Shown: in pieces, positions 1 through 48,000 of the stretch
How positions within the stretch are numbered: the first letter of the stretch is position 1
Layout of the letters: each line of letters begins with the position of its first letter
Source of the DNA: an uncultured Candidatus Saccharibacteria bacterium
GTDB lineage: Bacteria; Patescibacteriota; Minisyncoccia; UBA6257; 2-01-FULL-56-20
Reading direction: 5' to 3'
DNA length: 64,000 bases
Assembly (NCBI GenBank): GCA_964505005.1
Contig: CAZDFQ010000002.1
Coordinates: 92,310 to 156,309, forward strand
Program-made: the position numbers and the translations under genes
Notes under the pieces: generated by a model
Told to the model about the DNA's origin: nothing
Database searches by the model: none
What the model saw: only the letters and a program-made list of their open reading frames with translations

Positions 1-2400
1 TGCCAAGATTTCAATCCCTTTAGTTTTTGCTTCGTTCACGAGAAAAGCGATTCTTTCAATGTCTCCCAGTTCGGCGTTAAGAAGCGCGGCCATGAATTCT
101 TCCGGATAGTGGGCTTTGAGAAAAGCCGTGCGAAAGCCGATTAAGGCGTAGCAGACGCCGTGGCTGCGGTTGAAGCCGTAACGGGCAAACGGCTCGAACC
201 ACTTCCAAATTTCTTTCGCCTTTTTTTCTTCGACGCCATTTCTAACCATCCCTTTGACCATTTTGTCTTCCTGTTCAAGAAGGAGCGATTTTATTTTTTT
301 GCCCACGGCCTTTCTCAAAGTGTCAGCTTCGGAAAAAGTGAAACCAGCCAGCTCCCGGGCGATTTCCATCAATTGTTCCTGATAAAGCATTATTCCATAA
401 GTTCTTTTGAGAATCGGTTCGAGCTTCGGGTGGAGATAAGTTATTTTTTCCCTGCCGTGTTTGCGATTGATGTATTTTGGCACCATGCCGGTTTCCAAAG
501 TTCCCGGTCGGTAGAGCGAAATCATGGCCACGACGTCTTCGAATTCTGTGGGCACCAATTCTTTGAGATAATGCCGCATGCCTTCGCCTTCCAGCTGGAA
601 AACGCCGGTCGTGTCAGCTTTTTGGAGTAATTCGAAAGTCTTTTTGTCATCAAGGCTGAGCTCCGATACTTTTATTTCTTCGCCGCGCAGTTCTTTGATG
701 AGTCGAATCGTTTCTTCGATGATAGTCAGATTTTTCAAGCCCAAGAGGTCCATTTTAAGAAGCCCCAAGTCCTCGATGCTGTGCATTTCGAATTGAGTGA
801 TGACAATGTCTTTGCCCTGCGGGGCAAACTGGAGCGGCACATATTCGGTCAGCGGCTCTTTGGAAATCACCGTACCGCAGGCGTGGACCGAAGCGTGTCT
901 GGCCACGCCCTCTAAGTGTCTGGCTGCGTCAAGAAGTTTTTTGGCATCGTCGTTCGTCTCGTAAAACTCTTTCAATTCCGGCACCTTCTTCACGGCGTCT
1001 TCCAGTTTCAATTGAAAAGGAATGAGTTTGGCAATTTGGTCGCAAAAGCCGTAGCTCAAGCCCATGGCCCGGCCGGCGTCGCGCACCGCGGCCCGGGCCG
1101 CCATGGTTCCGAAAGTAATTATCTGAGCCACCCGATTTTCGCCATATTTTTCGCGGCTGTAAGCCAGCACCTCGTCGCGCCGGGTGTCCGCGAAGTCAAT
1201 GTCGATGTCCGGCATTTGCACCCTTTCCGGATTCAGGAATCGTTCAAAAAGAAGATTGTATTTGAGCGGGTCAACATCGGTGATGCCGAGAATATAGGAA
1301 ACCAAGCTGCCGGCTGAGGAGCCGCGGCCCGGGCCCACGGCAATGCCGTGCGTTTTCGCCCAGGACACCAAATCCTGCACAATGAGGAAATAATCGGCAA
1401 AACCGGTTTTGGTGATGACGCCCAGTTCGTATTCCAGCCGCTCCTTCAATTCCGGTGTTTGTTCATCCGGCGCAAAGCGCTGATTGATTTTTTGATTGAT
1501 TAATTCGCGGAGATATTCGTTGGCTGATTGATTGTTCGGCGTCGGGAAACTCGGCAGGTGGATTTTATTGAGTTCCAGTTCGACATTGCACTGGTCGGCA
1601 ATTTTCGCGGTATTGGCCGCGGCCTCGGGAATTTCTTTGAACACTTCAGCCATTTTCTCCGGGGAAGTCATCGAATAATCGTCGGCTTTCAGAGTCATTC
1701 GGTCATCGTCGCTCAGCCGGCTGCCGGTTTGGACTGCGAGGAGAATGTCATGGTATTCGGAGTCCTCGGCTTCAGCATAATGAATGTCCTGGGTCGCGAC
1801 CAAAGGAGTTTTTGTTGTCCGGCTTAATTCAATCAATCTCCTCCAAACCTTTTTGTGCCACTCCGGATTGAAATTCGGATGATGACCGATTTCCAGAAAG
1901 AAATTTTCCGGACCGAAAATTTCTTTGTATTCATCAATAATGGGTTCCGCTGGCTTGTCGTTCAAAATCGCCTGGACCAATTCGCCGGAATAGCACCCGG
2001 ACAGGGCGATGAGCCCGTCTTTGTACTGGCGCAAGAGGTCTTTATCAACCCGCGGCCGATAATAAAATCCTTCGAGATGCGCTTTGGTAACGAGCTGAAT
2101 CAGATTTTTCCAGCCCTCGTGATTTTTGGCGAGCAGTATCAGATGGTAATAACGTTCGTTCGGCTCGCGGCTGAACCGGTCGCGCGGCGCCACATAAGTT
2201 TCCACGCCTAAAATCGGCTTGAGGCCGGCCGCCTTGGCTTTTTTGTAAAATTCCACGGCACCGTAGAGCGCTCCGTGGTCAGTCAACGCCAGGGCCTCCA
2301 TCCCGAGCGCTTTGGCTTGGCTGATTAAATCGTCAATTTTAGCCAAGCCATCGAGCAGGGAATAGTGAGAATGAGTATGGAGATGAACGAATTTCGACAT
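1..2400 (-). CDS. dnaE: DNA polymerase III alpha subunit, N-terminal part (PHP domain onward). The gene runs off the window start; start codon at 2400-2398.
   Basis: Minus-strand translation begins MSKFVHLHTHSHYSLLDGLAKIDDLISQAKALGMEALALTDHGALYGAVEFYKKAKAAGLKPILGVE..., the classic PHP-domain N-terminus of DnaE. The + strand ORFs at 160-2211 are mirror-frame artefacts. Confidence 0.85.
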   Translation of the reverse strand, partial: MSKFVHLHTHSHYSLLDGLAKIDDLISQAKALGMEALALTDHGALYGAVEFYKKAKAAGLKPILGVETYVAPRDRFSREPNERYYHLILLAKNHEGWKNLIQLVTKAHLEGFYYRPRVDKDLLRQYKDGLIALSGCYSGELVQAILNDKPAEPIIDEYKEIFGPENFFLEIGHHPNFNPEWHKKVWRRLIELSRTTKTPLVATQDIHYAEAEDSEYHDILLAVQTGSRLSDDDRMTLKADDYSMTSPEKMAEVFKEIPEAAANTAKIADQCNVELELNKIHLPSFPTPNNQSANEYLRELINQKINQRFAPDEQTPELKERLEYELGVITKTGFADYFLIVQDLVSWAKTHGIAVGPGRGSSAGSLVSYILGITDVDPLKYNLLFERFLNPERVQMPDIDIDFADTRRDEVLAYSREKYGENRVAQIITFGTMAARAAVRDAGRAMGLSYGFCDQIAKLIPFQLKLEDAVKKVPELKEFYETNDDAKKLLDAARHLEGVARHASVHACGTVISKEPLTEYVPLQFAPQGKDIVITQFEMHSIEDLGLLKMDLLGLKNLTIIEETIRLIKELRGEEIKVSELSLDDKKTFELLQKADTTGVFQLEGEGMRHYLKELVPTEFEDVVAMISLYRPGTLETGMVPKYINRKHGREKITYLHPKLEPILKRTYGIMLYQEQLMEIARELAGFTFSEADTLRKAVGKKIKSLLLEQEDKMVKGMVRNGVEEKKAKEIWKWFEPFARYGFNRSHGVCYALIGFRTAFLKAHYPEEFMAALLNAELGDIERIAFLVNEAKTKGIEILA

Positions 2401-2501
2401 AGTAAAGAGAACGAAAATTCTTTTCAATTGTAATAGATTGTCCGCCGAAAAGGAAGCCTTTTTGCATTTTAGGCGGCTTTTAATAGAATAATAAAGCAAT
2501 T

Positions 2502-2574
2502 GCCACCTTAGCTCAGCTGGTAGAGCAGCACTTTTGTAAAGTGACGGTCCCCGGTTCGAGCCCGGGAGGTGGCT
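2502..2574 (+). tRNA. tRNA-Thr (anticodon TGT)
   Basis: Cloverleaf: acceptor gccacct/aggtggc, D-arm gctcagctggtagagc, anticodon loop tttgtaa, T-arm cccgg-ttcgagc-ccggg, short variable loop. No CCA encoded. Confidence 0.6.
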
Positions 2575-2583
2575 CAAAAAATT

Positions 2584-2994
2584 ATGCAGGACCAATTATT
2601 TTATGTCGGCCAAAAGGCCTTTATCGAGAAGAGTGGCGCAGTTTTGGTGATGTACGATAAAAGCGGTCGGCTTGATTTTCCCGGCGGCAAGATTCAAGAA
2701 AGCGAAGATGACCTCGTTGAATCGTTGAAACGTGAGGTTTTTGAAGAAACCGGTTTGGAGATTGAGGTCGGCGAGCCGTTTTATGTTTGGCATTTTACTT
2801 TACCGCCGGAGCATAAAAATGCCGGCAAAAAAGTTTTTCTCGTCGGGTTCAGGTGCCGTTATGTTGGCGGAGAGTTAAAAGAATCGGCCAGCCATCGCGA
2901 TTACGAGTGGGTGACTCGCGAAACATATGGTAAATTAAATTTCGGAAATTACATCCATTTCAAAGCGCTTGAAAAATATTTTGAGGCCAGGTAA
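2584..2994 (+). CDS. NUDIX hydrolase
   Basis: Nudix box GGKIQESEDDLVESLKREVFEETGLEI (GX5EX7REUXEEXGU). The start was moved to the ATG at 2584 to avoid overlapping the upstream tRNA. Confidence 0.75.
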   Translation: MQDQLFYVGQKAFIEKSGAVLVMYDKSGRLDFPGGKIQESEDDLVESLKREVFEETGLEIEVGEPFYVWHFTLPPEHKNAGKKVFLVGFRCRYVGGELKESASHRDYEWVTRETYGKLNFGNYIHFKALEKYFEAR

Positions 2995-3008
2995 GTTTAA
3001 TAGAGGCC

Positions 3009-3081
3009 GCCGATGTAGCTCAGCTGGTAGAGCAACTCCATGGTAAGGAGTAGGCCGCCGGTTCAAGTCCGGCCATCGGCT
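3009..3081 (+). tRNA. tRNA-Thr (anticodon GGT)
   Basis: Acceptor gccgatg/catcggc, anticodon stem actcc/ggagt with loop atggtaa, T-arm gccgg-ttcaagt-ccggc. Confidence 0.65.
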
Positions 3082-3122
3082 CAATTTACAAAATAGGCTT
3101 TATTTGTTAATATCCCGCCGCA

Positions 3123-3302
3123 ATGGCAAAATTGAAGTATTCAGAAAACTTAATCGCGCTCAAATGTTCGGCCTGCAACCGCCGGAATTATTACACGCGC
3201 AAAAACAAAAAAACTATTGAGCGGAAAATCGAGTTCAAGAAGTTTTGCAAATGGTGTCGAAAACATACATTACATAAAGAGGTTAAAATTACAGGGAAAT
3301 AG
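3123..3302 (+). CDS. rpmG: 50S ribosomal protein L33
   Basis: 59 aa: MAKLKYSENLIALKCSACNRRNYYTRKNKKTIERKIEFKKFCKWCRKHTLHKEVKITGK, with the L33 zinc-ribbon CxxC...CxxC. It is shorter than the ORF-track cutoff, so it was found by manual translation. Confidence 0.8.
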   Translation: MAKLKYSENLIALKCSACNRRNYYTRKNKKTIERKIEFKKFCKWCRKHTLHKEVKITGK

Positions 3303-3498
3303 TTTTCGCACCATTTGCGGGAAAGGGGTTCCGCCAGAGGCGGACAGGCGGGAAAACGGGAGTTTCCCCGTGGCGGAAGTCTTGAAACCGCTGGGTTTCA
3401 AAGAGCGCGAGCGAGTCCACCCAGTTGAGCGAGCGCGAGCAGATGGTGTCACGCACACTATTCACAAGGAGACGAAAATCAGCGGCAAATAGTTTTTT

Positions 3499-3574
3499 GG
3501 GGGCATAGTTTCAATCGGCAAAATATTTCTCTCCAAAAGAAAAGTTCCAGGTTCGAGCCCTGGTGCCCCCGCCA
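3499..3574 (+). tRNA. tRNA-Trp (anticodon CCA), with encoded 3' CCA
   Basis: Acceptor gggggca/tgccccc, anticodon stem tttct/agaaa with loop ctccaaa, T-arm ccagg-ttcgagc-cctgg, then gcca. rpmG followed by tRNA-Trp is a conserved gene order. Confidence 0.6.
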
Positions 3575-3576
3575 TA

Positions 3577-3822
3577 ATGAGGAAAATAACTTTCAACTCC
3601 GTAGCCCAGACTTGTCTCGTGGTTTTTACGATACTGGGATTTTTATTGACTTCGCTGAAATTGCCTCAATATGGTCTTATAGCGGCGCTGATTTCTCAAA
3701 TTTTTTGGCTCTATAGTTCTTACCGGGCCTGGCGTGAAGCCGATCAGATAGGCATATTTATAACGACTATTTTTATAATAATTACGATAGTGTACGGACT
3801 GATAAATTATTGGTTGTTGTAA
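3577..3822 (+). CDS. Small hypothetical membrane protein (81 aa, 2-3 TM). It sits where secE is usually found but does not look like SecE.
   Basis: ORF begins 2 nt after the tRNA-Trp CCA. Hydrophobic segments LVVFTILGFLLTSL, LIAALISQIFWLY and IFITTIFIIITIVYGLINYWLL. Confidence 0.35.
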   Translation: MRKITFNSVAQTCLVVFTILGFLLTSLKLPQYGLIAALISQIFWLYSSYRAWREADQIGIFITTIFIIITIVYGLINYWLL

Positions 3823-3869
3823 TTTGACAGATATTCTGATTTACTATCACCAGCGTTGATGTCTTTACA

Positions 3870-4598
3870 TTGCTTGATAAGGAGGATAAAGCCATGGACG
3901 AATGTCGCGAGGCGCCAGTCAGGCCCTGGAAGCGTCCTGAAACACTTTCCGCTTGGGTCGAAATGTTCGGCAGGATCTACGATGAGCACGACGAGGAGAC
4001 GTACCCCGCCGACAAGGAACTCCTAGCCCGCCTCTATGAAGAATGCCTTCGTCTCTTGGAGCCGCTGCGGAAGGAGCAGTTCGAGAAAATCCGAGCCAGG
4101 TTGCCATACCTCTTCGTATGGTTCGTTGCCTGTTTGAGCCGTGCGAAAGTCGGCCTCGCCCGGGCAGCCTGGCACAAGTATCCCGCGGTCTGCCCCTACA
4201 GGTTCGAAGAAGAGAACTGTACTTGCATCATCATTAGGGGCAGCACCTACCGGCCGGATGATCCGCGACTCATTTCGTATCGGGAGGATATCCGCAAGAT
4301 GCCGCAGTCGCTCTATGAGTGGCAGAGCATGTTCCGCCATCTTTTTGGGGCATGCAACGAGCGGGGGCAGACGACGATGGCGGTTCTCTGCCACTTGGGT
4401 GAAGAGGCACAGGAATTCGGCGAGCAATTCCGGTTCGGGAACAAGGGCAGGATGGAGGAGGCCGCCGATTTCTTCGCTTGGTGGTGCGGGGCCGCGACGA
4501 AACTCGGTATCCAAAATGCGGAGGATCTTCTCTGGCGGCATTACCCCGGAGTGTGCGATGTTTGCGCGCTCCCGCGATGCCGCTGTCCGAAGGTTTGA
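3870..4598 (+). CDS. Cys-rich hypothetical protein with a MazG-like NTP pyrophosphohydrolase-type helical motif, in a GC-rich foreign-looking patch
   Basis: LGEEAQEFGEQFRF...EEAADFFAWWCGAATKLGI resembles the MazG EExxE / EExxD motif pair. C-terminal CDVCALPRCRCP. Local GC is far above neighbouring genes, and overlapping shadow ORFs appear on both strands. Confidence 0.4.
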   Translation: MLDKEDKAMDECREAPVRPWKRPETLSAWVEMFGRIYDEHDEETYPADKELLARLYEECLRLLEPLRKEQFEKIRARLPYLFVWFVACLSRAKVGLARAAWHKYPAVCPYRFEEENCTCIIIRGSTYRPDDPRLISYREDIRKMPQSLYEWQSMFRHLFGACNERGQTTMAVLCHLGEEAQEFGEQFRFGNKGRMEEAADFFAWWCGAATKLGIQNAEDLLWRHYPGVCDVCALPRCRCPKV

Positions 4599-4726
4599 AT
4601 CGGAATGAACTAAGATTGCGGCCTGCTCGATTCTATCGGGTGGGCCGCAAATCATTTCAAAAGGATTTTCGGCAGACGAGCAGCAGTTATCTAACTAATA
4701 TGCTAAAAATGCTAATATAGTTCATT

Positions 4727-5968
4727 GTGTCCGCTTCACTTTCCAAAAAGCAGATTTTCCGGCTCTCCGCGGTTTTTGCTTTGATTTATTTTTTCTCGCC
4801 GAACGGCATGGCTTCTTTGCCCGGCCTGACCGTCAGTTTTCTTTTAAAAGATGTTTTGAAAATAACCGCCACAGCCGCTTCGTATTTCAGCGCGGTTACG
4901 ATTCTCGGCTGGGCAATCAAGCCGCTCTGGGGAATAATTTCCGACACTGTGCCGATTGCCGGTTATCGCCGCAAACCCTATCTCATCATTACGGCAATTT
5001 TGGCAGCCGTTATCTGGTTTTCCCTCGGCCAAATTGAGAATTACACTATCAAAATTTTACTGGTGCTTTTCACTTTATCGTCGTTCGCCTATGCGTTTAT
5101 GGATGTGATTGGTGACGGTTTGATGGTGGAAACCGGCAAGCCCCACAACCTCACTGGCCGGTTCCAGTCAATTCAGTGGACCGCGGTTTATACTGCCTCA
5201 ATCATCACCGGCGTTGCCGGCGGCTGGGTCGCCGAACATCTGAAACCCCAAATCGTCTTTTCTATCAATGCGATTTTCCCTCTTGTTGTTCTCTTAGGGG
5301 TCTTATTGCTTAAAGAAACAAAAGCGCTCGAATATAAAGAGCAGGTCAAAACGAGTTTACGGGCCTTGAAAGAATCATTCAGTAAGCCCACTCTCTGGCT
5401 CTTGGCGTTTTTCCTGTTTTTCTGGACTTTTAGCCCCTCGTTCGGTGCGCCGTTTTTTTATTACGCAGTTGATAATTTGAAATTCGGCAAATTATTTTTC
5501 GGCGTGGTCGGTTCAATCGGCGCGGCAGCGGCGGCTTTGGGTGCGGTGATTTACGGCAAATATCAGCCGAAATTCCGAACTCGTTCCTTGGTAAAATTCG
5601 CTATCATCATCGGCGTCATCGCCACGCTTTTCGATTTGGTTTACTTCACGCCGTTCATTACCCAGCATCTCGAGCGCGCGAGAATGATTTACATTTTGTC
5701 CGCGGCAATTCTCGGCGTCATCGGCAGCATCACTTTTTTGGTGATGCTCAATGCCGCGGCTTTGGCTTCGCCCAGATACAGCGAAGGCACGACTTTTGCC
5801 TTGCTGACCTCCTTCTGGAACATCGGTCTTATCGGTTCGGATATTTTAGGCGGCTATCTTTTCAGTAAAATCGGTTTGCAACCGTTAATCTGGATTTCCG
5901 CTGGGTTCACAGCCGCGGCCTGGCTGATTCTTCCTTATCTCAAATTCGGCGACGAGTCCCGCCCATAA
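4727..5968 (+). CDS. Folate-biopterin transporter (BT1) family MFS permease
   Basis: YFSAVTILGWAIKPLWGIISDTVPIAGYRRKPYLII matches the BT1 family signature. About 12 TM segments. GTG start at 4727; an alternative ATG lies near 4806. Confidence 0.7.
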   Translation: MSASLSKKQIFRLSAVFALIYFFSPNGMASLPGLTVSFLLKDVLKITATAASYFSAVTILGWAIKPLWGIISDTVPIAGYRRKPYLIITAILAAVIWFSLGQIENYTIKILLVLFTLSSFAYAFMDVIGDGLMVETGKPHNLTGRFQSIQWTAVYTASIITGVAGGWVAEHLKPQIVFSINAIFPLVVLLGVLLLKETKALEYKEQVKTSLRALKESFSKPTLWLLAFFLFFWTFSPSFGAPFFYYAVDNLKFGKLFFGVVGSIGAAAAALGAVIYGKYQPKFRTRSLVKFAIIIGVIATLFDLVYFTPFITQHLERARMIYILSAAILGVIGSITFLVMLNAAALASPRYSEGTTFALLTSFWNIGLIGSDILGGYLFSKIGLQPLIWISAGFTAAAWLILPYLKFGDESRP

Positions 5969-6073
5969 TAAAATTATGTGTCGATTTGCATTTTCTCAAT
6001 TATTTTTGTATAATTTAGCCGGTATTTCGGGAAAGTTAGCCGGCCTTACCCAGCCGGCAAGGAGGAGGAAATT

Positions 6074-6256
6074 ATGCGGATTGGGAGGTATTTGTTCAGC
6101 CGCCGGCGGATTTGTCCGTTCTGCGGCTCCGGCTCCGTCACCAAAGTCGGCGAGGAACGGCTGGTCGTCTGCTTGCAGCGGCTGTACTGTTGCAAGCGGT
6201 GCGACCGCACTTTCCGCGGCCGGCGATTTCTCCTCTTTCGGGCTTGCTGGGAATAA
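6074..6256 (+). pseudogene. Remnant of an IS1595-family-like transposase N-terminal zinc-ribbon (60 aa, standalone)
   Basis: Strong RBS aggaggagg 6 nt upstream of the ATG. RRRICPFCGSGSVTKVGEERLVVCLQRLYCCKRCDRTFR resembles the Zn_Tnp_IS1595 ribbon (CPxCG...YxCKxCxxxF). No DDE catalytic domain follows. The surrounding 5970-6410 is GC-rich. Confidence 0.4.
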
Positions 6257-6452
6257 GCCGGCCACAGGCAATCAGGCGTCTCGCCAGATGTTGTTTCAGA
6301 CGACTGGCGAGGCGCCATCTCTTTTATTGTTGCCAGAAAATAAAATTTGGTATAAGCTTCTAAACGCGATGCGAATGACGCGAATGCCATCCGAATGTCG
6401 CGAATAAAAATTTAATTCGTTCGCATTCGTAGTTATTTGTAGCATTTGTAGT

Positions 6453-6815
6453 ATGTTGACTATAAGATTACAGCGCATCGGCAAAAAACATCAGCCAAGC
6501 TACCGCCTGGTGGTGGCTGAAAAACGTTCCAAGCTCGGCGGTCCAGCCAAGGAAGATTTGGGTTTTTACAATCCTCTTCGGAAAGACGCCGGCTTTAAAG
6601 CCGAGCGGATTTTGTACTGGCTCGGCGTCGGCGCCAAGCCCTCGGCCATGGTCCACAATCTTTTGGTCAGACACAATATCCTTAAGGGACCGAAAATAAA
6701 AATTTCCATCAAGAAAAAATCGTCTTCAGAAGCAGCTCCGAAGCCGGCTGAAACCGCTGCCGAATCTTCGGTTGAAATGACGACCGAAATGTCGGCCGAC
6801 GCTTCAACTGCCTAA
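6453..6815 (+). CDS. rpsP: 30S ribosomal protein S16 with a C-terminal low-complexity extension
   Basis: MLTIRLQRIGKKHQPSYRLVVAEKRSKLGGPAKEDLGFYNP... Confidence 0.9.
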   Translation: MLTIRLQRIGKKHQPSYRLVVAEKRSKLGGPAKEDLGFYNPLRKDAGFKAERILYWLGVGAKPSAMVHNLLVRHNILKGPKIKISIKKKSSSEAAPKPAETAAESSVEMTTEMSADASTA

Positions 6816-7100: not shown

Positions 7101-7397
7101 ATGGCACAAAGCGATCAGGAATTTCTGGAATTTCTCGTCAAGGCGTTGGTTGACCACCCGGACGATGTGAAAGTGGACAGGAAAGTGGACGAGATGGGCG
7201 TGCTTTTGTCTTTGAGGGTTAACCCTCAGGACATGGGACAGGTGGTTGGTCGGCAGGGAGCCACGGCTAAAGCCATCCGCTCGCTGCTTCGAATTGTGGG
7301 AGTGAAGAACAACGCCCGCGTCAATCTGAAAATTGAAGAGCCGGAAGGCAGCACTCGTTCGCCCCGGCCGGCGCCGACCGGAGAAAGCAGTTATTGA
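7101..7397 (+). CDS. KH-domain RNA-binding protein (YlqC/UPF0109 family)
   Basis: VGRQGATAKAIRSLLRIVGVKNNARVNLKI contains the KH GxxG core. Its position after rpsP is conserved. Confidence 0.8.
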   Translation: MAQSDQEFLEFLVKALVDHPDDVKVDRKVDEMGVLLSLRVNPQDMGQVVGRQGATAKAIRSLLRIVGVKNNARVNLKIEEPEGSTRSPRPAPTGESSY

Positions 7398-7458
7398 TTT
7401 TTAATTCGGATGGGCGCATTTGTAGTGCGCTATCCGGATGCCAATAATTGCCAATGCA

Positions 7459-7492
7459 AAAACCGCCCTGAGCTTGTCGAAGGGCGGTTTTT
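7459..7492 (+). terminator. Rho-independent terminator after the KH-protein gene
   Basis: aaaaccgccctgagcttgtcgaagggcggttttt: a GC stem followed by a U-run. Confidence 0.6.
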
Positions 7493-7700
7493 GTTGTGCC
7501 TAATTGACCCCGCACCTTTTGGTAAGAATTCACGCAGCACTTTCTTTCATCATAAAATATATGTAACTCGTGCGCCAAAAGGTGCGGGGTTGACTCTTTT
7601 CACTGTTCTGTGGTAGTTTGGCTTCAGCATAATCCAGCCGCACAGCAATGGGCTGTGAGGGCCGGCCGCTAATGACAATCGAATAGAGGAGGGAACTGCA

Positions 7701-8570
7701 ATGTCTAGAAACTTTCGTGAGTTACTCGAGGCGAAGTGGTCGGAAGGGAAGTTCGTTTGCGTCGGACTCGACAGCGAGTTCGGGAAGATTCCCGAATCTG
7801 CTCGCCGTCCCGGCAACGAGCGCGACATCGATGTCGCCAACACCATCGTCGAGTTCAACCGCGCCATCGTGGAAGCGACCAAGGACATCGTCTGCGCCTA
7901 CAAGCCGAACATCGCGTTTTACGAGGCGCACGGCAGCGAGGGGCTCGCGGCCTTGCACCGCACCATCGTGGACATCCACATTCTCGCGCCGGATGTGCCG
8001 GTGATTCTCGACGCCAAGCGCGCGGACATCGGCAACACCAACAATGGATATTGCCAGATGGCGTTCGAGTGGCTTGGGGCGGATGCGATCACGGTGCATC
8101 CGTACTTCGGAGCCGATGCGCTCCAGCCGTTCCTCGACCGAGCGGATAAGGGCGTTATCGTGCTCTGTCGCACGTCCAACCCGGGTGCAGGCGAGTTCCA
8201 GAATCTGTCCGTGGGCGGCGAGCCGCTCTATCGCTTCGTGGCTCGTTACGTCGCAAGCGAGTGGTGGAACAGGAACGGCAACTGCGCGGTGGTCGTCGGC
8301 GCGACTTATCCCGAGGAGCTTCGGGAAGTCCGCGGCATCGTCGGCGACCTGCCGATTCTCATTCCGGGGGTCGGCTTCCAGCAGAAGGATGTGCCTCTCG
8401 AAGAGCAGGTGCGGCAGGTCGTTTCCGCCGGCAAGGACAGCCGCGGCTGGGGGATGATTATCAATTCCTCGCGCGGCATCATCTTTGCCTCCAAGGGGCC
8501 GGACTTTGCCGAGGCAGCCCGGCGCGAGGCAGGCAAACTCCACGAGCTCATCATCCGCTGCCTTGGCTAG
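7701..8570 (+). CDS. pyrF: Orotidine 5'-phosphate decarboxylase, type 2 (long form)
   Basis: VCVGLDSEF... and DAKRADIGNT (the DxKxxDIxxT active-site motif). About 289 aa, as in type 2 ODCases. GC3 is very high compared with flanking genes. The minus-strand ORF 7722-8618 is a GC shadow ORF. Confidence 0.8.
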   Translation: MSRNFRELLEAKWSEGKFVCVGLDSEFGKIPESARRPGNERDIDVANTIVEFNRAIVEATKDIVCAYKPNIAFYEAHGSEGLAALHRTIVDIHILAPDVPVILDAKRADIGNTNNGYCQMAFEWLGADAITVHPYFGADALQPFLDRADKGVIVLCRTSNPGAGEFQNLSVGGEPLYRFVARYVASEWWNRNGNCAVVVGATYPEELREVRGIVGDLPILIPGVGFQQKDVPLEEQVRQVVSAGKDSRGWGMIINSSRGIIFASKGPDFAEAARREAGKLHELIIRCLG

Positions 8571-8603
8571 CCGGAGCCAAGGCATAGGATGGTAGAAAAG
8601 CGA

Positions 8604-8645
8604 GGGGTCGTTGCTCAAAAGGCAACGACCCCTTTGAAATTTTAT
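8604..8645 (+). terminator. Rho-independent terminator after pyrF
   Basis: ggggtcgttgc-tcaaaag-gcaacgacccc followed by tttgaaatttta. Confidence 0.5.
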
Positions 8646-8686
8646 TTACATTTATGTTATAAATCGTTCGTATTAGATATTCAAAT

Positions 8687-9259
8687 ATGTTGTCAATCAA
8701 CGACCTCAAAAATGGAATAATCGTCAAAATCGGCAGCGACCCCTTTGTCGTTTTGTCGGTTAAGCATCTTCATATGGGCCGGGGCGGTTCGAGCGTGCAA
8801 ACGCGAATCAAGAACCTTAAAACCGGCCAGGTTCTGGAGCGGAATTTCAAGCCCGCGGATGAATTTGAAGAAGCGGAAATCGAGAAAATATCGTGCGTTT
8901 TTATTTACGAGAGCCGCGGCGATTATTGGTTCAATGAAGCCGGGAATCCGAAAAACCGCTTCTCGCTTAAAGCCGACGATTTAGCCGAGTCGGCTCAATT
9001 CCTGAAGCCGAATTTAGAGGTTCAGGCGATAAAATACGATGACAAAATTATCAACATCGAGTTGCCGATAAAAGTTGACTATAAAGTCATTGAGGCGCCG
9101 CCTTCAGTGAAAGGAAATACTGCTCAAGGCGGCAGCAAAGTTGTCATTCTTGAAACCGGCGCCAAAATTTCCACACCCCTTTTTATAAATGCCGGCGACA
9201 TCATCCGGGTCAATACCCAGACCGGCGAATACACGGAACGGGTAGAGAAAGCCGCTTAA
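8687..9259 (+). CDS. efp: Elongation factor P
   Basis: MLSINDLKNGIIVKIGSDPFVVLSVKHLHMGRGGSSVQTRIKNLKTGQVLERNFK...; typical EF-P length. Confidence 0.9.
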   Translation: MLSINDLKNGIIVKIGSDPFVVLSVKHLHMGRGGSSVQTRIKNLKTGQVLERNFKPADEFEEAEIEKISCVFIYESRGDYWFNEAGNPKNRFSLKADDLAESAQFLKPNLEVQAIKYDDKIINIELPIKVDYKVIEAPPSVKGNTAQGGSKVVILETGAKISTPLFINAGDIIRVNTQTGEYTERVEKAA

Positions 9260-15396: not shown

Positions 15397-15513
15397 TTTA
15401 GAAAACTCCTTATCTGCTGAATATTATTGATAGTTGTTGCCTTTTCGTGCAGCGCGCAGGTGGCAGCCAGCCCAAGGCTGGTCGGCCTCGGGCCGAAGCG
15501 GTCAATCTTTTTC

Positions 15514-15765
15514 ATGTATTTTGTTTACATCTTGAAAAGCAATAGGAGCGGTAAGCTTTACAAAGGCTCAACTTCAGATTTAAGACGTCGCCTCAAAGAG
15601 CATAATAACAGAGAAGAATATTCTACAAAAAGTGGCATCCCATGGAAATTGGTCTATTATGAATGTTTTTTGAATAAATCAGACGCGCTTCGAGAAGAGA
15701 AATTTCTTAAATCCGGGAAGGGTAGAGAACGAATTAAATTTTTGTTAAAATATACTTTGAAATAA
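15514..15765 (+). CDS. GIY-YIG nuclease-domain protein (YhbQ/UPF0213-like), ending 3 nt before tRNA-Tyr
   Basis: MYFVYILKSNRSGKLYKGSTSDLRRRLKEHNN (GIY...YIG motifs). Start placed at the ATG 15514 by homology. Confidence 0.7.
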   Translation: MYFVYILKSNRSGKLYKGSTSDLRRRLKEHNNREEYSTKSGIPWKLVYYECFLNKSDALREEKFLKSGKGRERIKFLLKYTLK

Positions 15766-15768
15766 TTT

Positions 15769-15856
15769 GCGCAGGTGGCAGAGCGGTCAATTGCACTTGA
15801 CTGTAAATCAAGCGCCCTTTCGGGCTACGGGGGTTCGAATCCCTCCCTGCGCACCA
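15769..15856 (+). tRNA. tRNA-Tyr (anticodon GTA), long variable arm, encoded CCA
   Basis: Acceptor gcgcagg/cctgcgc, anticodon stem cttga/tcaag with loop ctgtaaa, long variable arm cgccctttcgggctac, T-arm ggggg-ttcgaat-ccctc. Confidence 0.7.
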
Positions 15857-16050
15857 ATCAGGAAAAGTCAATGCCTCGCGGCGGCTGTGCCGCCGCTCGG
15901 CTACCAAATCGTACGGATTTTTTGGGCTCAAAACGGAACTGGCGGTTTTCGGTGGGAAAAGAAAATTTTTTCATAAGGATGTTAAAGTATGAGCTTAGCT
16001 TTGAAAGGTCGACCTTTTTATAAATTATTATAAAAAAATAAAAGATAATT

Positions 16051-16551
16051 ATGGGATTTGAAACTCCTAAGATGCCGTCGCCGGAAGAAATGGCGAAACT
16101 GGAAAAAAGTAGGACATTATCTGATGCGGAATTATTAAAAAATGAGTCAGGATTTCCTGGCGAGGAAACGGCAGAATACAAGTTCGATAAACAAGGCAAT
16201 AAACAACTTGAGGTTCCAGAGGAGGACATAGAAGTTGCGAGGAGAGAAATGAATTCAGAAATAGCCATAAAGAATGCTGATTCTTTTGAAGAGTTAGGGA
16301 CCGCGCTCCTTAAAGATAAAAAATTCACTAGCGAATTAATCGGCCCTTTAGATCAATATGGGATAGAGGGTGTGGTTCGCCAAATCGAACGTTTAAGAAC
16401 AATAAAAAGAAATGGCTCATCAGAATATTTCTATAAAGATTGGATACCAGAAGGTGGAGGCTTAAGAGCAAAAGTTTTTGAATTGATGGAGAGAGAGTTT
16501 GGTAAAGATTGGTTCACAGATATTTCCTGGGGAAAGAAAAAAGAGAAATAG
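16051..16551 (+). CDS. Hypothetical protein (166 aa) in the AT-rich island
   Basis: No recognisable motif; acidic N-terminus. The local GC is well below the window average. Confidence 0.4.
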   Translation: MGFETPKMPSPEEMAKLEKSRTLSDAELLKNESGFPGEETAEYKFDKQGNKQLEVPEEDIEVARREMNSEIAIKNADSFEELGTALLKDKKFTSELIGPLDQYGIEGVVRQIERLRTIKRNGSSEYFYKDWIPEGGGLRAKVFELMEREFGKDWFTDISWGKKKEK

Positions 16552-16770
16552 AATAATCTTTGGTAAATCTTTTTAAGGTATTCTCTCCACAGACTCATTT
16601 TTATTTTCCGCCAAAGAAAAACTTGAAATTGTCAACGGTGTGGCTCCGCCGCAATTCGGATTTTTCGCGGGGGGCTTTCCTCGCCGCCGCAGGCGGCGAA
16701 ATGCGTTCGAACTATTTTAAGTATTCTGCACACTTCGATTTGCTACCGCTCGCTCAGTGTTACGCTAAAA

Positions 16771-17028
16771 ATGATAATTTTTACTAGACATGCTAGAAAT
16801 AAATTTGAAATTCTAAAAAGACATAAATTTTTAGTTCCTGAAAAACAAATTTTTAAAACTATAGAAGAACCAGATTTAATTGATAAATCCCGCTTGCCTA
16901 TTTTGATTGCTCAGCGAAAAATTGACAAAACTTATGTTTTAAGAGTAGTGTATAAAAAGGAAAATGGGATTATAAAAGTAATCACCTTCTACCCGGGGGG
17001 GCGGAAACAATATGAAAAACAAAAATAA
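16771..17028 (+). CDS. DUF4258 (BrnT-like, RelE/ParE superfamily) putative ribonuclease toxin
   Basis: RHARNKFEIL...YVLRVVYKKENGIIKVITFYPGG, the typical DUF4258 C-terminus. It overlaps the next ORF by 17 nt. Confidence 0.55.
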   Translation: MIIFTRHARNKFEILKRHKFLVPEKQIFKTIEEPDLIDKSRLPILIAQRKIDKTYVLRVVYKKENGIIKVITFYPGGRKQYEKQK

Positions 17029-17254
17029 AGCAAAAATTTCATACGAACCAGAGGCCGATGTTTTAATGTGGGAAATTACTGACAAGCCGATTGACTATGC
17101 CAGGGAAATTGGCAATGTTGTTGTTCACTTTACTAAAAACAATACACCGGTCTTAATTGAAATTTTAGAAGCCAGCAAATTTTTAGCCAGAACAAGACAT
17201 CTTGTAAAAGAAAGCAAAATTCCACTTAGAAAATCTGTTTTAGCGACTAGATAA
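17012..17254 (+). CDS. DUF2283 family protein, the usual partner (antitoxin-like) of DUF4258
   Basis: ISYEPEADVLMWEITDKPIDYAREIGNVVVHF matches DUF2283 (YDxExDxL). It is translationally coupled to the upstream ORF. Confidence 0.55.
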   Translation: MKNKNKAKISYEPEADVLMWEITDKPIDYAREIGNVVVHFTKNNTPVLIEILEASKFLARTRHLVKESKIPLRKSVLATR

Positions 17255-17345
17255 AAGCCGCCAAACCTGCCTGCGGCAGGCAGGGGGCCGGGAAAACATC
17301 GGCTCGCTTGCCCGCCGAAGCTTCAGCGGAGGAGGGAACCATATT

Positions 17346-17972
17346 TTGATTTTGGAGGAAAGAAAATTTTTAATCCTTATGATAACGGTTATTTTTGATA
17401 CCGATGGGATGGTTATCCGTCGGGAAATGTATTTTAGCCAGCGTTTTTCACAAGAATTCGGCGTACCAATGGAGAAGATACTTCCATTTTTCGAAAATGA
17501 GTTCCAATCGTGTCTTATTGGCAAAGCCGACTTAAAACAAGAGCTGGCGAAATACCTCAATCAATGGGGATGGAAGAAATTAGTTGACGACTTACTCTCA
17601 TATTGGTTTGCCAATGAAAGCGACATAAATAAAAAGATACTCGGAAGCATAAAATCTTTAAGAGATAGAGGCATACATTGTTATCTGGGCACTAATAATG
17701 AAAAATATAGAGTTCAATATCTTTTTGATAATCTCAGCTTGAAGAATTTTTTTGATGGCGTATTTTCTTCTGCTGAACTCGGATTTTTGAAATCGCAACC
17801 GGAATTTTGGCAGGCAGTTTACGACCGCCTGGGTAAACCGGCTAAATCCGAGGTATTGGTCTGGGACGACGATGAAAAGAATGTCGAGTCGGCAAAAAAT
17901 TTCGGTTTTCGCTCCGAGCTTTATTCCAGTTATAATTCCTATGAGAATCGTATGAAATCATTGGTTAGTTAA
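17346..17972 (+). CDS. HAD-superfamily hydrolase
   Basis: VIFDTDGMV (the DxDG motif I) and C-terminal LVWDDDEKNVESAKNFG (motif IV). The true start is probably the internal Met at about 17376. Confidence 0.65.
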   Translation: MILEERKFLILMITVIFDTDGMVIRREMYFSQRFSQEFGVPMEKILPFFENEFQSCLIGKADLKQELAKYLNQWGWKKLVDDLLSYWFANESDINKKILGSIKSLRDRGIHCYLGTNNEKYRVQYLFDNLSLKNFFDGVFSSAELGFLKSQPEFWQAVYDRLGKPAKSEVLVWDDDEKNVESAKNFGFRSELYSSYNSYENRMKSLVS

Positions 17973-18014
17973 TTATTTTTTACTAACGGAGAAATAAAAT
18001 AATTTCTTAATCAT

Positions 18015-18572
18015 ATGAAATTGAAATCTTTTAATGTCGCCATTTATCCTTCGCTGAGAATTTCTAAAAAAGCAATAAATATTAGTAAAAAATTGAAAAA
18101 GAAAGGCGGATTGTTTGTTTTGGATGGCAGAAATTATTTTCCGCACATAACGCTTTATATGACGGAATTTCCGCTAAAGAATGTGCCGAAAATTAGGAAG
18201 TTACTTCGCGAAATTGCTGGTAAAACAAAACCATTCCGCCTGAATTCTTTGAAATATCAGCAGAGCAGAGACGGTTATATTGAAGTTGCATATCGTAAAT
18301 CTAAACCAATCAGAGAATTTCAAAAGAAAATTATCGCTCTTCTGAATCCTTTGCGTGAAGGCCTGTTGCTCCCGAAAGACAAAGCGCAAATAAATAAATT
18401 AAGCAGAATCCGGCAACATAACATCAAGCGCTACGGCTATCGTAGCGTTGGAGCAGAATTTCCCCCTCATTTAACATTTACCAAGTTAGAAAAATTTAAT
18501 AAATCGGCTCTCACAAATATTCCCAAATCGATTTTTTCATTTAAAGTTGATAGAATCGGTCTTTTCTATTGA
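18015..18572 (+). CDS. 2H phosphoesterase superfamily protein (LigT-like 2'-5' RNA ligase / cyclic phosphodiesterase)
   Basis: Two H-x-T/S-x motifs: FPHITLYM and PPHLTFTKL. Confidence 0.6.
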   Translation: MKLKSFNVAIYPSLRISKKAINISKKLKKKGGLFVLDGRNYFPHITLYMTEFPLKNVPKIRKLLREIAGKTKPFRLNSLKYQQSRDGYIEVAYRKSKPIREFQKKIIALLNPLREGLLLPKDKAQINKLSRIRQHNIKRYGYRSVGAEFPPHLTFTKLEKFNKSALTNIPKSIFSFKVDRIGLFY

Positions 18573-18622
18573 GGCGATTATGGTACTTGCCGTAAATTGA
18601 TAGAAATTTTTGATTTGTCATA

Positions 18623-23060: not shown

Positions 23061-24137
23061 TTGCCACCTCGGATTTACATGAAGAACACGATAGGAATAA
23101 AAAACCCCTTTGGCGCGCTAAGACGTGCAATCGTTGGGATTGTCGATGGCGCCGCCGTACCGACTCTTCATAAAGCGATGATTCCGACTTTACCCCAGAA
23201 ATATCTGTATTTTTTTAAGCAGAATGCAGGCAAGCCATTCCCCGAAAAATATGTTGAAGAAGCAAAAAAAGAACTCGAAAATTTTGTCGGGATTTTAGAG
23301 GGAGAGGACGTGATCGTAGATAGGCCTGACAAGATTGATTTCTCGAAACCCTTTATAACTCCGCATTGGTCGGAGCCAAGCGGGCTGTATGCCGCTATGC
23401 CTCGGGATATACTGCTTGTTGTAAAGAATAAAATTATCGTTGCGCCTATGTCTTGGAGGTGTCGCTACAGAGAAATCGAAGCATATCTCGATTTACTGAC
23501 GCGGTATAAAGAATTCGGGTACGAAATTGTTATCGCCCCCAGACCGGAATTAAAAGACGATTTATATGAACCGGTTGCGGGCGACATCGGAGATACATTT
23601 GAGCCGGTACTCAACGGAAGCGAACCGGTATTTGATGCGGCGGATTTTATTGTGTTAGATAAAATAATAATAGGCCAGAAAAGTCTTGTTACTAACGATG
23701 CTGGGATTAACTGGTTAAAGAGAGAAGTCAGCAATGATTTCAAAATATATATACTGAAATTTAACGACCCCCATCCAATGCATATCGATGCCACATTTCT
23801 GCCGTTGCGGGAAGGCCTTATTCTTATAAATCCTGAGCGAGTGGACGCCGAAACAGTACGTGCTCAACTGCCAACAGAAATAAAATCGTGGGAATTTGTA
23901 GAGGCTCCTTTTCCTGTCATGAAGAGTGATTCCCCGCCGAGGTTTTTTAGCAGCGACTGGTTAAATATGAACATTCTAATGCTGAATTTAAGCATGGCCA
24001 TAGTTGAGGAGAATCAAACGCCCCTGATTACGTTACTCGGGGAGCGCGGTATCAAAGCGATTAGTTGTCCTTTTCAATACTTTCAATGCTTTGGGGGGTC
24101 GTTTCACTGTGCTGTGGTTGAAACTAGCCGGCTATGA
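23061..24137 (+). CDS. Amidinotransferase/DDAH/arginine-deiminase superfamily enzyme (C-terminal GGxxHC catalytic motif)
   Basis: The C-terminus ...CFGGSFHCAVVETSR matches the GGGxHC catalytic-Cys motif of the GME/pentein fold. Confidence 0.45.
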   Translation: MPPRIYMKNTIGIKNPFGALRRAIVGIVDGAAVPTLHKAMIPTLPQKYLYFFKQNAGKPFPEKYVEEAKKELENFVGILEGEDVIVDRPDKIDFSKPFITPHWSEPSGLYAAMPRDILLVVKNKIIVAPMSWRCRYREIEAYLDLLTRYKEFGYEIVIAPRPELKDDLYEPVAGDIGDTFEPVLNGSEPVFDAADFIVLDKIIIGQKSLVTNDAGINWLKREVSNDFKIYILKFNDPHPMHIDATFLPLREGLILINPERVDAETVRAQLPTEIKSWEFVEAPFPVMKSDSPPRFFSSDWLNMNILMLNLSMAIVEENQTPLITLLGERGIKAISCPFQYFQCFGGSFHCAVVETSRL

Positions 24138-25468
24138 AGTTTCTAATCCGCGGCGGCCAGAAATTGAGCGGCGAAATCAACGTCAGCGGCGCCAAAAATT
24201 CCGTGCTCAAAGGAATGGCTGCCTCGGTTTTGTCAGCCAAGCCGGTTATCCTGGACAATGTGCCCTTAATTGAGGACGTTTTCCGGATGCGGGAATTACT
24301 GGAGCATCTCGGCGCTGAAGTGGCCATACCTGCCGGTAGACAGGGAGAAGGCGGCCCGCTTCGCCCGCCCGCTCCGACTCGGAATCGAGGCGAGCGAAGC
24401 GAGGCGAGCCGAACGCTTCGAATCAATCCCTCTTCAATCAAAAAAACCGAACTTAAAAACGAGATTGCTGAACGGCTCCGGGCTTCGATTGTTCTGGCTG
24501 GCCCGGTGCTCGCCCGTTTGGGAAAAGTAAGTTTTCCTCACCCGGGCGGCTGCGTTATCGGCAAAAGACCAATTGATGTTTTTTTGGCTGGCTGGCAGGC
24601 CATGGGCGCTAAGGTCCGGGAAAGCCAAGCTGGTTTTCTGGTTTCGGCCCGAAAATTAAAAGGCAAGGATTTTACTTTCCGCCTGGTCAGCGTTACCGGC
24701 ACGGAAACTTTGATGTTGACCGCGGCTTTGGCCTATGGCAAAACTGTTTTGCGGAATGCCGCGATGGAGCCCGAAATCCCTCACTTGGCGGAATTTCTTA
24801 ACGACTCCGGCGTGAAAATCTCCGGGGCCGGCACCCCGACCATTGAAATTATCGGCAGTAATGGCCGCCTGCTCCATCCCAAAAGTCCTTTTCAAGTCCT
24901 TAGTGACCGGATTGAAGCCGGCAGTTTTCTGATTCTGGGCGCGGCTTTGGGAAGAAAACTGAAAGTAGTTAACTGCATCCCGGAACATCTGACGGCTTTA
25001 ATCGCCGCGCTGCAGGAAGCTGGTGTCGGACTGGAGATTGGTCAGGACTGGATTTCTGTCAGTCAGCCGCGAAAATTAAAAGCCGTGGATGTCCGGACTC
25101 ATGAATACCCCGGCTTCCCAACTGACCTTCAGGCGCCTTGGGCGGTGCTGATGACTCAAGCCCAGGGAGACAGCTTGATTTTCGAAACGATTTTTGAAGG
25201 CCGATTTTCTTACATCGAAGAACTAAAGAGAATGGGCGCGAAAATTTTGACGCTTGACGAGCACCGCATTTTGGTCAAAGGCCCGGCTCATCTTCGCGGC
25301 CGGGAAATTGAAAGCCCGGACTTGCGGGCTGGCTTGGCTTTTGTCATTGCGGCTTTGCTCGCCAAAGGAGAATCAGTAATCAACAACATTTATCAAATCG
25401 ACCGCGGCTACGAAAAAATCGACGAGCGGCTGAAAAATTTAGGCGCGGACATTTCTCGTCTCAGCTGA
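24134..25468 (+). CDS. murA: UDP-N-acetylglucosamine 1-carboxyvinyltransferase MurA, carrying an in-frame ~28-aa repeat-derived insertion
   Basis: MKFLIRGGQKLSGEINVSGAKNSVLK...FPHPGGCVIGKRPIDVFL (catalytic Cys loop) ...LRAGLAFVIAAL. Confidence 0.85.
   Translation: MKFLIRGGQKLSGEINVSGAKNSVLKGMAASVLSAKPVILDNVPLIEDVFRMRELLEHLGAEVAIPAGRQGEGGPLRPPAPTRNRGERSEASRTLRINPSSIKKTELKNEIAERLRASIVLAGPVLARLGKVSFPHPGGCVIGKRPIDVFLAGWQAMGAKVRESQAGFLVSARKLKGKDFTFRLVSVTGTETLMLTAALAYGKTVLRNAAMEPEIPHLAEFLNDSGVKISGAGTPTIEIIGSNGRLLHPKSPFQVLSDRIEAGSFLILGAALGRKLKVVNCIPEHLTALIAALQEAGVGLEIGQDWISVSQPRKLKAVDVRTHEYPGFPTDLQAPWAVLMTQAQGDSLIFETIFEGRFSYIEELKRMGAKILTLDEHRILVKGPAHLRGREIESPDLRAGLAFVIAALLAKGESVINNIYQIDRGYEKIDERLKNLGADISRLS
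24341..24425. repeat. GC-rich palindromic insertion inside murA, encoding QGEGGPLRPPAPTRNRGERSEASRTLRI
   Basis: cgcttcgcccgcccgctccgactcggaatcgaggcgagcgaagcg forms a stem (cgcttcgc/gcgaagcg). It shares cgcccgcccgc with the 50613 element family and cgctccgactc with the mnmA insert. MurA homologs have about 20 residues here; this one has about 50. Confidence 0.55.
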
Positions 25469-46275: not shown

Positions 46276-46417
46276 ATGAAATCCTGAAATGGGGTATATA
46301 AATTCGTAGCATTCGCATCCATTCGCAGATTAGCATTATATTCAAGCCGCTTAACCATAATGCGAATGACCCGAATTATATATGCGAATGATGCGAAAAA
46401 TAATTAAGATTAAGATT

Positions 46418-47635: not shown

Positions 47636-47699
47636 GAATGTCCCAAGGGAAGGGGGTCGGTCAATCCACTCACCCCGACCCCCGGCTTAAGAAACCTCC

Positions 47700-48000
47700 G
47701 GTTTCTTACGTCGCTCGCTACGCTTGCTCCTATTTTTCCACCACGGGGTGAGCGGTGCGCTTCTCCCGCATCGGAAGGCAAGGAGCGAAGCGACTGTCGG
47801 AAACCGAGGGTGTCCGAGATAGTGGGGGCGGGAGAAGCGCGAAGAACGGCAGTTTCCCGTGTAGGAAATTACTCAAAACCGAGAGGTTGTGAGGGAGCTC
47901 CGACGAATGTCGGAGCGACGGGGAATTCCCGACCTTTTTGAGAAGGAAGAAAAGGTAGAGTAAATTCCATACCCCTTTAACATAAAATAGAGGCTCTCTC
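47700..48000 (+). ncRNA. Candidate structured non-coding RNA of unknown class. Strand uncertain.
   Basis: About 300 bp without a credible ORF, GC-rich. It has long-range complementarity gcgcttctcccgc (47757-47769) / gcgggagaagcgc (47833-47845) and local hairpins (gctccgac-gaat-gtcggagc). A promoter-like ttgaaa...tataat lies at 48035-48075, just before the next gene. Confidence 0.25.

Follow-up and report, generated by a model that had tools for sequence, protein, structure and literature searches.

A stretch of 64,000 nucleotides from the genome of an uncultured Candidatus Saccharibacteria bacterium, called the window below, contains near its beginning a gene rich in guanine and cytosine (GC) that encodes a protein of 234 amino acids. 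Judged from profile searches and a predicted structure, this protein is a divergent member of the all-alpha nucleoside triphosphate (NTP) pyrophosphohydrolase superfamily, to which MazG belongs, with a predicted Mg2+-dependent activity. It is an internal duplication in which a MazG-like half with a CxxC-x5-CxC cysteine knuckle behind it occurs twice. Taking all the evidence together, we consider it likely that the gene encodes a real, stand-alone enzyme of the MazG superfamily with this tandem-knuckle architecture and a putative role in deoxynucleoside triphosphate (dNTP) metabolism, that it belongs to a family found mainly in bacteria of the candidate phyla radiation (CPR) and in DPANN archaea, and that the copy in the window was probably acquired laterally.

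Predicted architecture and fold of the protein

The coding sequence, its parts and the features that overlap or flank it are listed here, with residue numbers counted from ATG 3894. A1 is an alignment of 40 family members.

3894..4598 (+): coding sequence, 234 amino acids, putative stand-alone tandem MazG-like NTP pyrophosphohydrolase with two cysteine knuckles (homology, GC at third codon positions, AlphaFold 2)
3881..3887 (+): Shine-Dalgarno-like AAGGAGG, 6 nt upstream of ATG 3894 (read from the sequence)
3933..4178 (+): N-terminal MazG-like half, residues 14-95, catalytically degenerate (alignment A1, internal repeat)
4179..4226 (+): first knuckle, residues 96-111, Y-P-x-x-C100-x2-R103-x5-C109-x-C111 (alignment A1; non-helical in the AlphaFold 2 model)
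4302..4541 (+): C-terminal MazG-like half, residues 137-216, metal-binding motif intact (A1)
4542..4586 (+): second knuckle, residues 217-231, Y217-P-G-V-C221-x2-C224-x4-C229-x-C231 (alignments A1 and A2)
4614..4652 (+): GC-rich stem-loop, 16 nt past the stop codon, without a clean T-run (inverted repeat I10, RNA fold)
4023..4655 (-): shadow open reading frame (ORF), 210 amino acids, a by-product of high GC and not a gene (ORF list)
4141..4608 (+): shadow ORF, 155 amino acids, Arg/Ser/Gly-rich, an off-frame GC-rich reading (ORF list)

The duplication can be seen within the protein itself, where residues 14-115 and 133-234 are 26% identical over 89 amino acids (E=1e-6), and it is also visible as secondary high-scoring segment pairs against relatives. 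In A1 each half follows the consensus L..WQ.MF..IYG..N..., then an EE-containing helix, a hydrophobic F/W helix and W.KYPG.C..C.....C.C. The metal-binding pattern EExxE-(12-28)-ExxD is found in the C-terminal half only, as E170-E171-A-Q-E174 (nt 4401-4415) followed after 14 residues by E189-A-A-D192 (nt 4458-4469). E171, E174 and D192 are invariant in A1, and E170 and E189 are present in at least 90% of its members. The N-terminal half has kept the first EE (E49/E50) and lacks the third Glu and the ExxD. All eight knuckle cysteines of the family are invariant or nearly so in A1: C100, C109 and C111 are invariant, position 103 is Cys in at least 90% of members and Arg in the window protein, and each of C221, C224, C229 and C231 occurs in at least 90% of A1 and throughout alignment A2. 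An earlier note on this DNA, made from the letters alone, had called the product a Cys-rich MazG-like protein with EExxE/EExxD-like helices and a CxC-rich C-terminus. Both motifs were located, in E170-E171-x-x-E174 with E189-x-x-D192 and in C221-x2-C224-x4-C229-x-C231. With one intact and one degenerate site, a single chain mimics the MazG/dUTPase dimer as a pseudo-dimer.

The window protein had no match in Pfam or NCBIfam even at E<=10, did not reach the models PF03819, PF12643 or TIGR00444, and gave nothing significant against PHROGs; on its own it made only a marginal match in the PDB, to SSO3215 (1vmg, E=0.58). Superfamily membership holds through transitive and profile evidence. The protein matches the family profile at E=4.7e-73, and 34 of the 40 A1 members reach the Pfam MazG model PF03819. 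The A1 profile in turn matches the solved structures 1vmg (E=6.7e-15), YpjD (2gta, 1.4e-6) and Escherichia coli MazG (3cra, 1.1e-5), as well as 5ie9, PRA-PH and DCTPP1 (E ~1e-4) and MazZ (7ody, E=0.014), all of these matches aligning to the C-terminal half. The AlphaFold 2 model calculated on A1 (pLDDT 93.5, pTM 0.90) contains ten helices, with non-helical stretches at the knuckles (residues 96-123 and 217-234). It has the four-helix all-alpha NTP pyrophosphohydrolase fold and resembles dimeric dUTPases and MazG. The profile matches to solved MazG-like structures and the intact EExxE...ExxD motif bear out the MazG-like assignment made in the earlier note.

No close orthologue was found. A word-indexed search of 5.8 billion proteins returned no match besides the protein itself, and only 3 proteins when the family alignment was used as the query. 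Exhaustive HMMER searching of 1.84 billion cluster representatives yielded 335 homologues at E<=1e-3, 102 at E<=1e-10 and 12 at E<=1e-30; the best are 38-42% identical, and none exceeds 42%. The only NCBIfam models that family members match, and then weakly, are generic ones for MazG or HisE, and that library has no model specific to the tandem MazG plus knuckle architecture. No description of the architecture, nor specific work on MazG in CPR bacteria, was found in the literature searched. By these comparisons the arrangement is a variant architecture within the MazG superfamily that has not been curated and is absent from current family libraries: the family is missed by word-indexed search, and its window member is missed by curated hidden Markov models (HMMs) as well.

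Read mechanically, the ORF begins at TTG 3870 and encodes 242 amino acids, the length given in the earlier note. That ORF exists, but the likely product is the shorter one: the AAGGAGG element makes ATG 3894 the almost certain start of translation, and an identical 234-amino-acid gene was called in an independent Logan assembly of the same sequence. The two long shadow ORFs at 4023-4655 (-) and 4141-4608 (+) are present exactly as the note had claimed. With three long ORFs overlapping and no curated HMM match to the product, one could suppose that the patch is a GC-rich element that encodes nothing, or that one of the other ORFs is the true gene. We give this idea practically no credence. All homology found sits in the frame of 3894, where it is strong, the GC content of the three codon positions in that frame is 0.60/0.45/0.72, the fold is predicted with confidence, and the catalytic and cysteine columns are conserved. 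Because homology and third-position GC both favor the plus-strand frame of 3894, the minus-strand ORF is not regarded as a gene. The stem-loop behind the stop codon is probably a terminator or 3' stabilizer: the predicted fold of 4596-4670 has a free energy of -31.6 kcal/mol (z=-5.07), with 0 of 200 shuffled sequences as stable. A scan for promoter and terminator consensus sequences gave nothing over shuffled expectation and did not call the stem-loop. The Rfam scan of 2400-6500 returned three tRNAs and a sub-threshold ctRNA match only, with no riboswitch between the MazG-like gene and the downstream gene for a major facilitator superfamily (MFS) transporter.

Relatives, their neighborhoods and the predicted reaction

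The distribution of the family was surveyed with a degenerate DNA motif for W.K[YF]P..C..C.....C.C, for which ~2 chance matches were estimated in 596 Gb; the motif catches only part of the family, and the window gene itself is unmatched owing to R103. In GTDB species representatives (one genome per species) there were 27 matches, 24 of them true members by hmmsearch. The remaining three (Bacteroidales, Oscillospiraceae and Chitinophagales) were rejected as non-members by hmmsearch, which fits the chance expectation. The members comprise 17 CPR bacteria, 5 archaea and 2 Chloroflexi. Sixteen of the CPR bacteria are named (Saccharibacteria, Nealsonbacteria, Liptonbacteria, Yanofskybacteria, Giovannonibacteria, Paceibacterota and other Parcubacteria) and one is an unclassified 'bacterium'; the archaea are four DPANN (Nanoarchaeia, two Woesearchaeota and Parvarchaeota) and one Thermoproteota. 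In metagenomes the motif marked 68 loci, with a member in 57. Genomes of CPR bacteria (Patescibacteria) and DPANN archaea, the window's kind of organism, are where the family is mainly concentrated. Each of the two Chloroflexi genomes has a pair of paralogues, at 4465-5394/6058-6774 of locus L027 (gap 664 bp) and 717-1676/2375-3094 of L015 (gap 699 bp). Both paralogues of L027, which is from Ardenticatenaceae, lie 11% below their flanks in GC, which suggests that Chloroflexi received them from a donor of low GC that was possibly CPR-like.

Thymidylate kinase (Tmk; Pfam Thymidylate_kin, E=1e-41) is the only frequent neighbor of the family. It was found near the family gene in 16 of 72 non-redundant loci, where chance adjacency within two genes was estimated at ~0.5% for genomes of ~800 genes. 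On the same strand, tmk lies directly upstream in 9 cases and directly downstream in 4, and it sometimes overlaps the start codon (for example in L013 and L014). The link extends across deep CPR lineages, including Saccharibacteria and Giovannonibacteria. Rarer neighbors in the same loci are ribosomal protein L11 (6, some with NusG), a PurF-like amidotransferase (4), ThyX (3), DeoC (3) and NUDIX (3-4; NUDIX genes stand near family members in L003, L006, L018 and L023). In L013, which encodes one of the closest relatives (41% identity), the gene order is tmk-mazG-thyX-deoC. The closest relative of all (also 41%; L075, 5932-8173) lies between a divergent gene for an AEP-like primase domain protein and a downstream methylpurine-DNA glycosylase gene, a setting of DNA repair and not of tmk.

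The mechanism that we propose starts from a MazG-like module with its cysteine knuckle duplicated in tandem. The C-terminal half alone keeps the Mg2+-binding residues, with the N-terminal half as a degenerate structural partner, and the resulting single active site would convert a (deoxy)nucleoside triphosphate to the monophosphate and pyrophosphate. Because relatives adjoin tmk, and sometimes sit between tmk and thyX, the substrate is most likely a pyrimidine dNTP, either dUTP or dCTP. Conversion of dUTP to dUMP or of dCTP to dCMP would then feed ThyX and subsequently Tmk, or would sanitize the thymidylate pathway. A probable role of the knuckles is to bind zinc and to stiffen the helical bundle. 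By analogy, the tmk/thyX neighborhoods of relatives, and these only, suggest dUTP/dUDP specificity for the window enzyme too; the context argument is borrowed, since the window gene itself is beside neither tmk nor thyX.

In some homologues of 350-570 amino acids the complete tandem module is joined to a further domain, as follows:

GGDEF fusion: P0048, P0050, P0067, P0077
TIR fusion: P0054
CHAT fusion: P0064, P0107
AID/APOBEC-like deaminase fusion: P0084
PNP_UDP phosphorylase domain fusion: P0090

Most fusions keep the catalytic E-E-E-E-D residues. In a subset of ~360 amino acids, which includes the TIR fusion, the degenerate half is on the C-terminal side instead. Partners of the GGDEF, TIR, CHAT, deaminase and PNP type are typical of nucleotide-centered conflict systems. 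The window gene might, in this light, be part of an anti-phage system of that kind, acting as a dNTP-depleting effector or as a degrader or sensor of a nucleotide signal. Besides the full-length, mostly catalytically intact modules in the fusions, the patchy distribution and foreign composition would suit an accessory gene, and MazG domains have been predicted, not validated, as defense domains (PMC13092281; bioRxiv 10.64898/2026.01.15.699771). We nevertheless regard a defense role as unlikely here. The window copy stands alone among housekeeping genes with no defense genes among its neighbors, PADLOC gave 0 matches for the window protein and the 40 A1 members, and Tmk is the conserved neighbor that dominates around stand-alone members.

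CPR bacteria and DPANN archaea are generally regarded as living for the most part on nucleotides that they scavenge, and for many of the genes in their genomes no function has been assigned. The family, widespread and recurring beside tmk and thyX, is a candidate for a step in the thymidylate and dNTP-sanitation pathway of these organisms. A broader proposal, which we put forward tentatively and with considerable doubt, is that the tandem family is the dUTPase/dCTPase-type enzyme of many CPR and DPANN members, in which it replaced a canonical enzyme by non-orthologous displacement, and that its module was later recruited by conflict proteins. If so, an enzyme encoded with tmk and thyX would supply dUMP to thymidylate synthesis in nucleotide-scavenging organisms, and conflict proteins of the TIR, CHAT, GGDEF, deaminase and PNP types in other lineages would repeatedly have adopted the catalytically intact module as a head that hydrolyzes or senses NTPs. 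In any case, elsewhere this module occurs in fusions with effectors of immune type, and the protein is a clean example of a homodimeric enzyme that has become a pseudo-dimer on one chain, with one of its halves dead and with putative zinc knuckles.

Base composition and origin of the gene

Windows of 730 bp taken over the 64 kb have a mean GC content of 46.3% (standard deviation 4.6%). The segment 3870-4598 has 58.3% (z=+2.6), a value equaled or exceeded by 1.4% of such windows. At a resolution of 100 bp, the profile across the gene was as follows:

3801-3900: 35% GC
3901-4000: 58% GC
4001-4600: 52-63% GC, with 57% in 4501-4600
4601-4700: 46% GC
4701-4800: 39% GC

The GC-rich patch is the MazG-like gene itself, ~700 bp long, with abrupt edges at the ends of the coding sequence. 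The earlier note had described a patch of 870 bp; its high GC is real, but by this profile its extent is that of one gene. The sliding-window calculation that the note had proposed confirmed the outlier. The coding sequence has 58-59% GC and a GC content at third codon positions (GC3) of 0.72, compared with a mean of 0.51 (standard deviation 0.08) for 68 ORFs of at least 100 amino acids. Only PyrF, when read in its true frame, has a higher GC3. Three other patches of at least 55% GC were found in the window:

7241-8921: PyrF-like gene, peak 64% GC
46381-47941: FtsZ, peak 62% GC
24111-25041: at least 55% GC

The PyrF-like gene (7701-8570, +; 62% GC, GC3 0.81) is the most extreme compositional outlier of the window. 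FtsZ (46382-47635, +), a core gene, has 55.5% GC and a GC3 of 0.67; FtsA (45058-46275, +) has a GC3 of 0.63 and is well above the window mean in GC, and the 5' part of MurA is likewise GC-rich. FtsZ and FtsA indicate that GC-rich patches occur in core genes of this genome too. The earlier note had named this as the finding that would speak against it, and it applies in part, given FtsZ at 55.5% GC and the PyrF-like gene at 62%.

The surroundings of the gene were examined for traces of a mobile element. The gene order is DnaE (-), tRNA-Thr, NUDIX, tRNA-Thr, L33, tRNA-Trp, an 81-amino-acid ORF with three predicted transmembrane segments and the MazG-like gene, followed by the BT1/MFS transporter, S16, KhpA, PyrF and EF-P. 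The tRNA genes are:

2502-2575: tRNA-Thr (ARAGORN)
3009-3082: tRNA-Thr (ARAGORN)
3499..3574 (+): tRNA-Trp (CCA), the nearest tRNA (ARAGORN; Rfam tRNA, 55.6 bits)

Between the end of the nearest tRNA and ATG 3894 are 319 bp, which hold the 81-amino-acid ORF (3577-3822, +). This ORF has three predicted hydrophobic segments and, at 38%, is among the lowest in GC of the ORFs examined; it has no Pfam match and no homologue in the family loci. The 81-amino-acid gene seen in L030 among the surroundings of the MFS orthologues is not homologous to it. The NUDIX hydrolase gene (2569-2994, +), which has a tRNA-Thr gene on either side, starts with a GTG and shares its first 7 nt with the end of the upstream tRNA. 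We also considered whether the locus could be a relic of an rpmG-tRNA-Trp-secE-nusG-rplK neighborhood and rejected this: the six L11-linked relatives have no nearby tRNA or L33, and nusG and rplK are both missing from the window.

MazG genes are common auxiliary genes of phages, in which MazG and ThyX co-occur, and the position downstream of tRNA-Trp together with the aberrant composition had led the earlier note to propose a phage- or plasmid-type gene, which would have arrived on an element integrated at the tRNA cluster. This route now appears very improbable. A search of 2400-6500 for attachment-site (att)-like repeats of a tRNA 3' end recovered tRNA-to-tRNA similarity and short chance repeats, and no such repeat of any tRNA flanks the gene. 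No integrase, recombinase, transposase or phage gene was found among the neighbors from DnaE to EF-P, and the foreign-looking segment is only one gene long. Nor did the protein find counterparts in mobile elements: neither the 50,697 phage nor the 72,556 plasmid records searched by tblastn gave a match, the motif scan of IMG/VR hit a single contig, a chance match without a family member, and no BFVD structure was matched at E<=0.001 by Foldseek. Horizontal acquisition as such, also proposed in the note, remains plausible on the GC excess and the missing close homologues, but by no phage, plasmid or tRNA-att route that could be seen. We lean slightly toward lateral acquisition from a higher-GC cellular lineage. 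The difference in GC between gene and flanks is +0.12 here and averages +0.005 (standard deviation 0.036, maximum +0.079) in 68 homologue loci with adequate flanks; because the excess is above all of these, more than 3 standard deviations out, high GC is not a property of the family. The adjacent MFS/BT1 gene has many orthologues at 70-76% identity, as against at most 42% for the MazG-like protein. These orthologues bear the names Wolfebacteria, Liptonbacteria, Giovannonibacteria and Nealsonbacteria, by which the window would come from a CPR organism of the Parcubacteria type. It is this combination of foreign composition (+12% GC, with sharp, gene-sized borders) and lack of a close orthologue that makes a lateral origin probable. 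A native, vertically inherited housekeeping gene, whose GC excess would reflect gene-to-gene heterogeneity of the genome, is a serious but rather unlikely alternative. It would agree with the GC-rich FtsZ, FtsA and MurA, with a family typical of CPR genomes and with the lack of mobile-element features; the unequaled GC excess, the sharp borders and the absence of any orthologue above 42% among the 1.84 billion cluster representatives, next to a well-conserved MFS gene, argue against it.

Several points weigh against the reading we prefer, a laterally acquired, stand-alone enzyme of dNTP metabolism. The window protein scores below every curated HMM. Composition by itself is weak evidence for transfer, as a deviation like that of the gene (+12% GC, GC3 0.72 versus 0.51) is seen in FtsZ (GC3 0.67) and PyrF (GC3 0.81) too. 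In the nearest relatives sampled, the surroundings of the MFS orthologues (69-75% identity) are wholly different, so that an insertion is neither shown nor excluded by them. With regard to function, we infer both the substrate and the binding of zinc, none of tmk, thyX, deoC, nusG and rplK is present in the 64-kb window, and the GGDEF, TIR, CHAT, deaminase and PNP fusions point to non-housekeeping roles in part of the family. Finally, the taxonomic picture comes from one DNA motif carried by part of the family. For the window, the outcome is one defined accessory gene of nucleotide metabolism, probably acquired laterally, with no mobile element.

A few other features of the window were recorded. 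The PyrF-like gene matches Pfam OMPdecase (E=4e-29) and is accompanied on both strands by long shadow ORFs. In L029, the closest of the contigs with partial synteny (S16-KhpA-x-EF-P), its slot holds an unrelated 255-amino-acid gene with no Pfam match. Next to the MazG-like gene, the PyrF-like gene is another gene of nucleotide metabolism that is a candidate for acquisition. Between the MFS transporter and rpsP, a 143-amino-acid ORF at 5976-6450 has a GC content at second codon positions of 0.60, higher than its GC3 of 0.50, a low-complexity Ala/Gly/Ser/Arg composition and no Pfam match; it is overlapped by an antisense ORF and by the sub-threshold Rfam ctRNA match (6225-6330, 26 bits, E=0.037). 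This segment may be non-coding, although a gene was nonetheless called there on the Logan assembly. Further along, a GIY-YIG nuclease ORF (15427-15765) ends 3 nt ahead of tRNA-Tyr (15769-15856), and the region 16001-18400, with 35-38% GC, encodes an unknown 166-amino-acid protein, a HAD hydrolase and a LigT-like 2'-5' RNA ligase. Within the annotated part of the window, approximately its first 23 kb, 15427-18600 looks more like a tRNA-adjacent island than the MazG-like gene does.

Comparison with known MazG-like enzymes

The closest known systems are the single-domain MazG-like proteins, such as Sulfolobus solfataricus SSO3215 (1vmg) and Bacillus subtilis YpjD (2gta) and those described by PF03819 and PF12643. 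These are ~95-120 amino acids long and form homodimers or tetramers, whereas the window protein fuses two modules in one chain, the N-terminal one catalytically degenerate, with a knuckle after each. SSO3215 has no knuckle, and the alignment to 1vmg stops just ahead of the knuckle. E. coli MazG (3cra) and other tandem-domain MazG proteins share the presence of two domains but have no cysteine knuckles, and they differ in size (265 amino acids) and in the linkage of the domains; the window protein does not reach their models TIGR00444 and NF007113. The resemblance of the predicted structure to the dimeric all-alpha dUTPases (Campylobacter jejuni 1w2y, phage 5myd and Leishmania major 2yay) is accompanied by a sequence identity of just 8-13%, and the window protein has no match to Pfam dUTPase_2. 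With the house-cleaning enzymes DCTPP1 and MazZ and the MazG proteins of integrons and phages, the likeness is detectable by profile, and by analogy the expected chemistry would be the same, dNTP to dNMP and pyrophosphate. These enzymes are, however, distant single-domain tetramers without knuckles.

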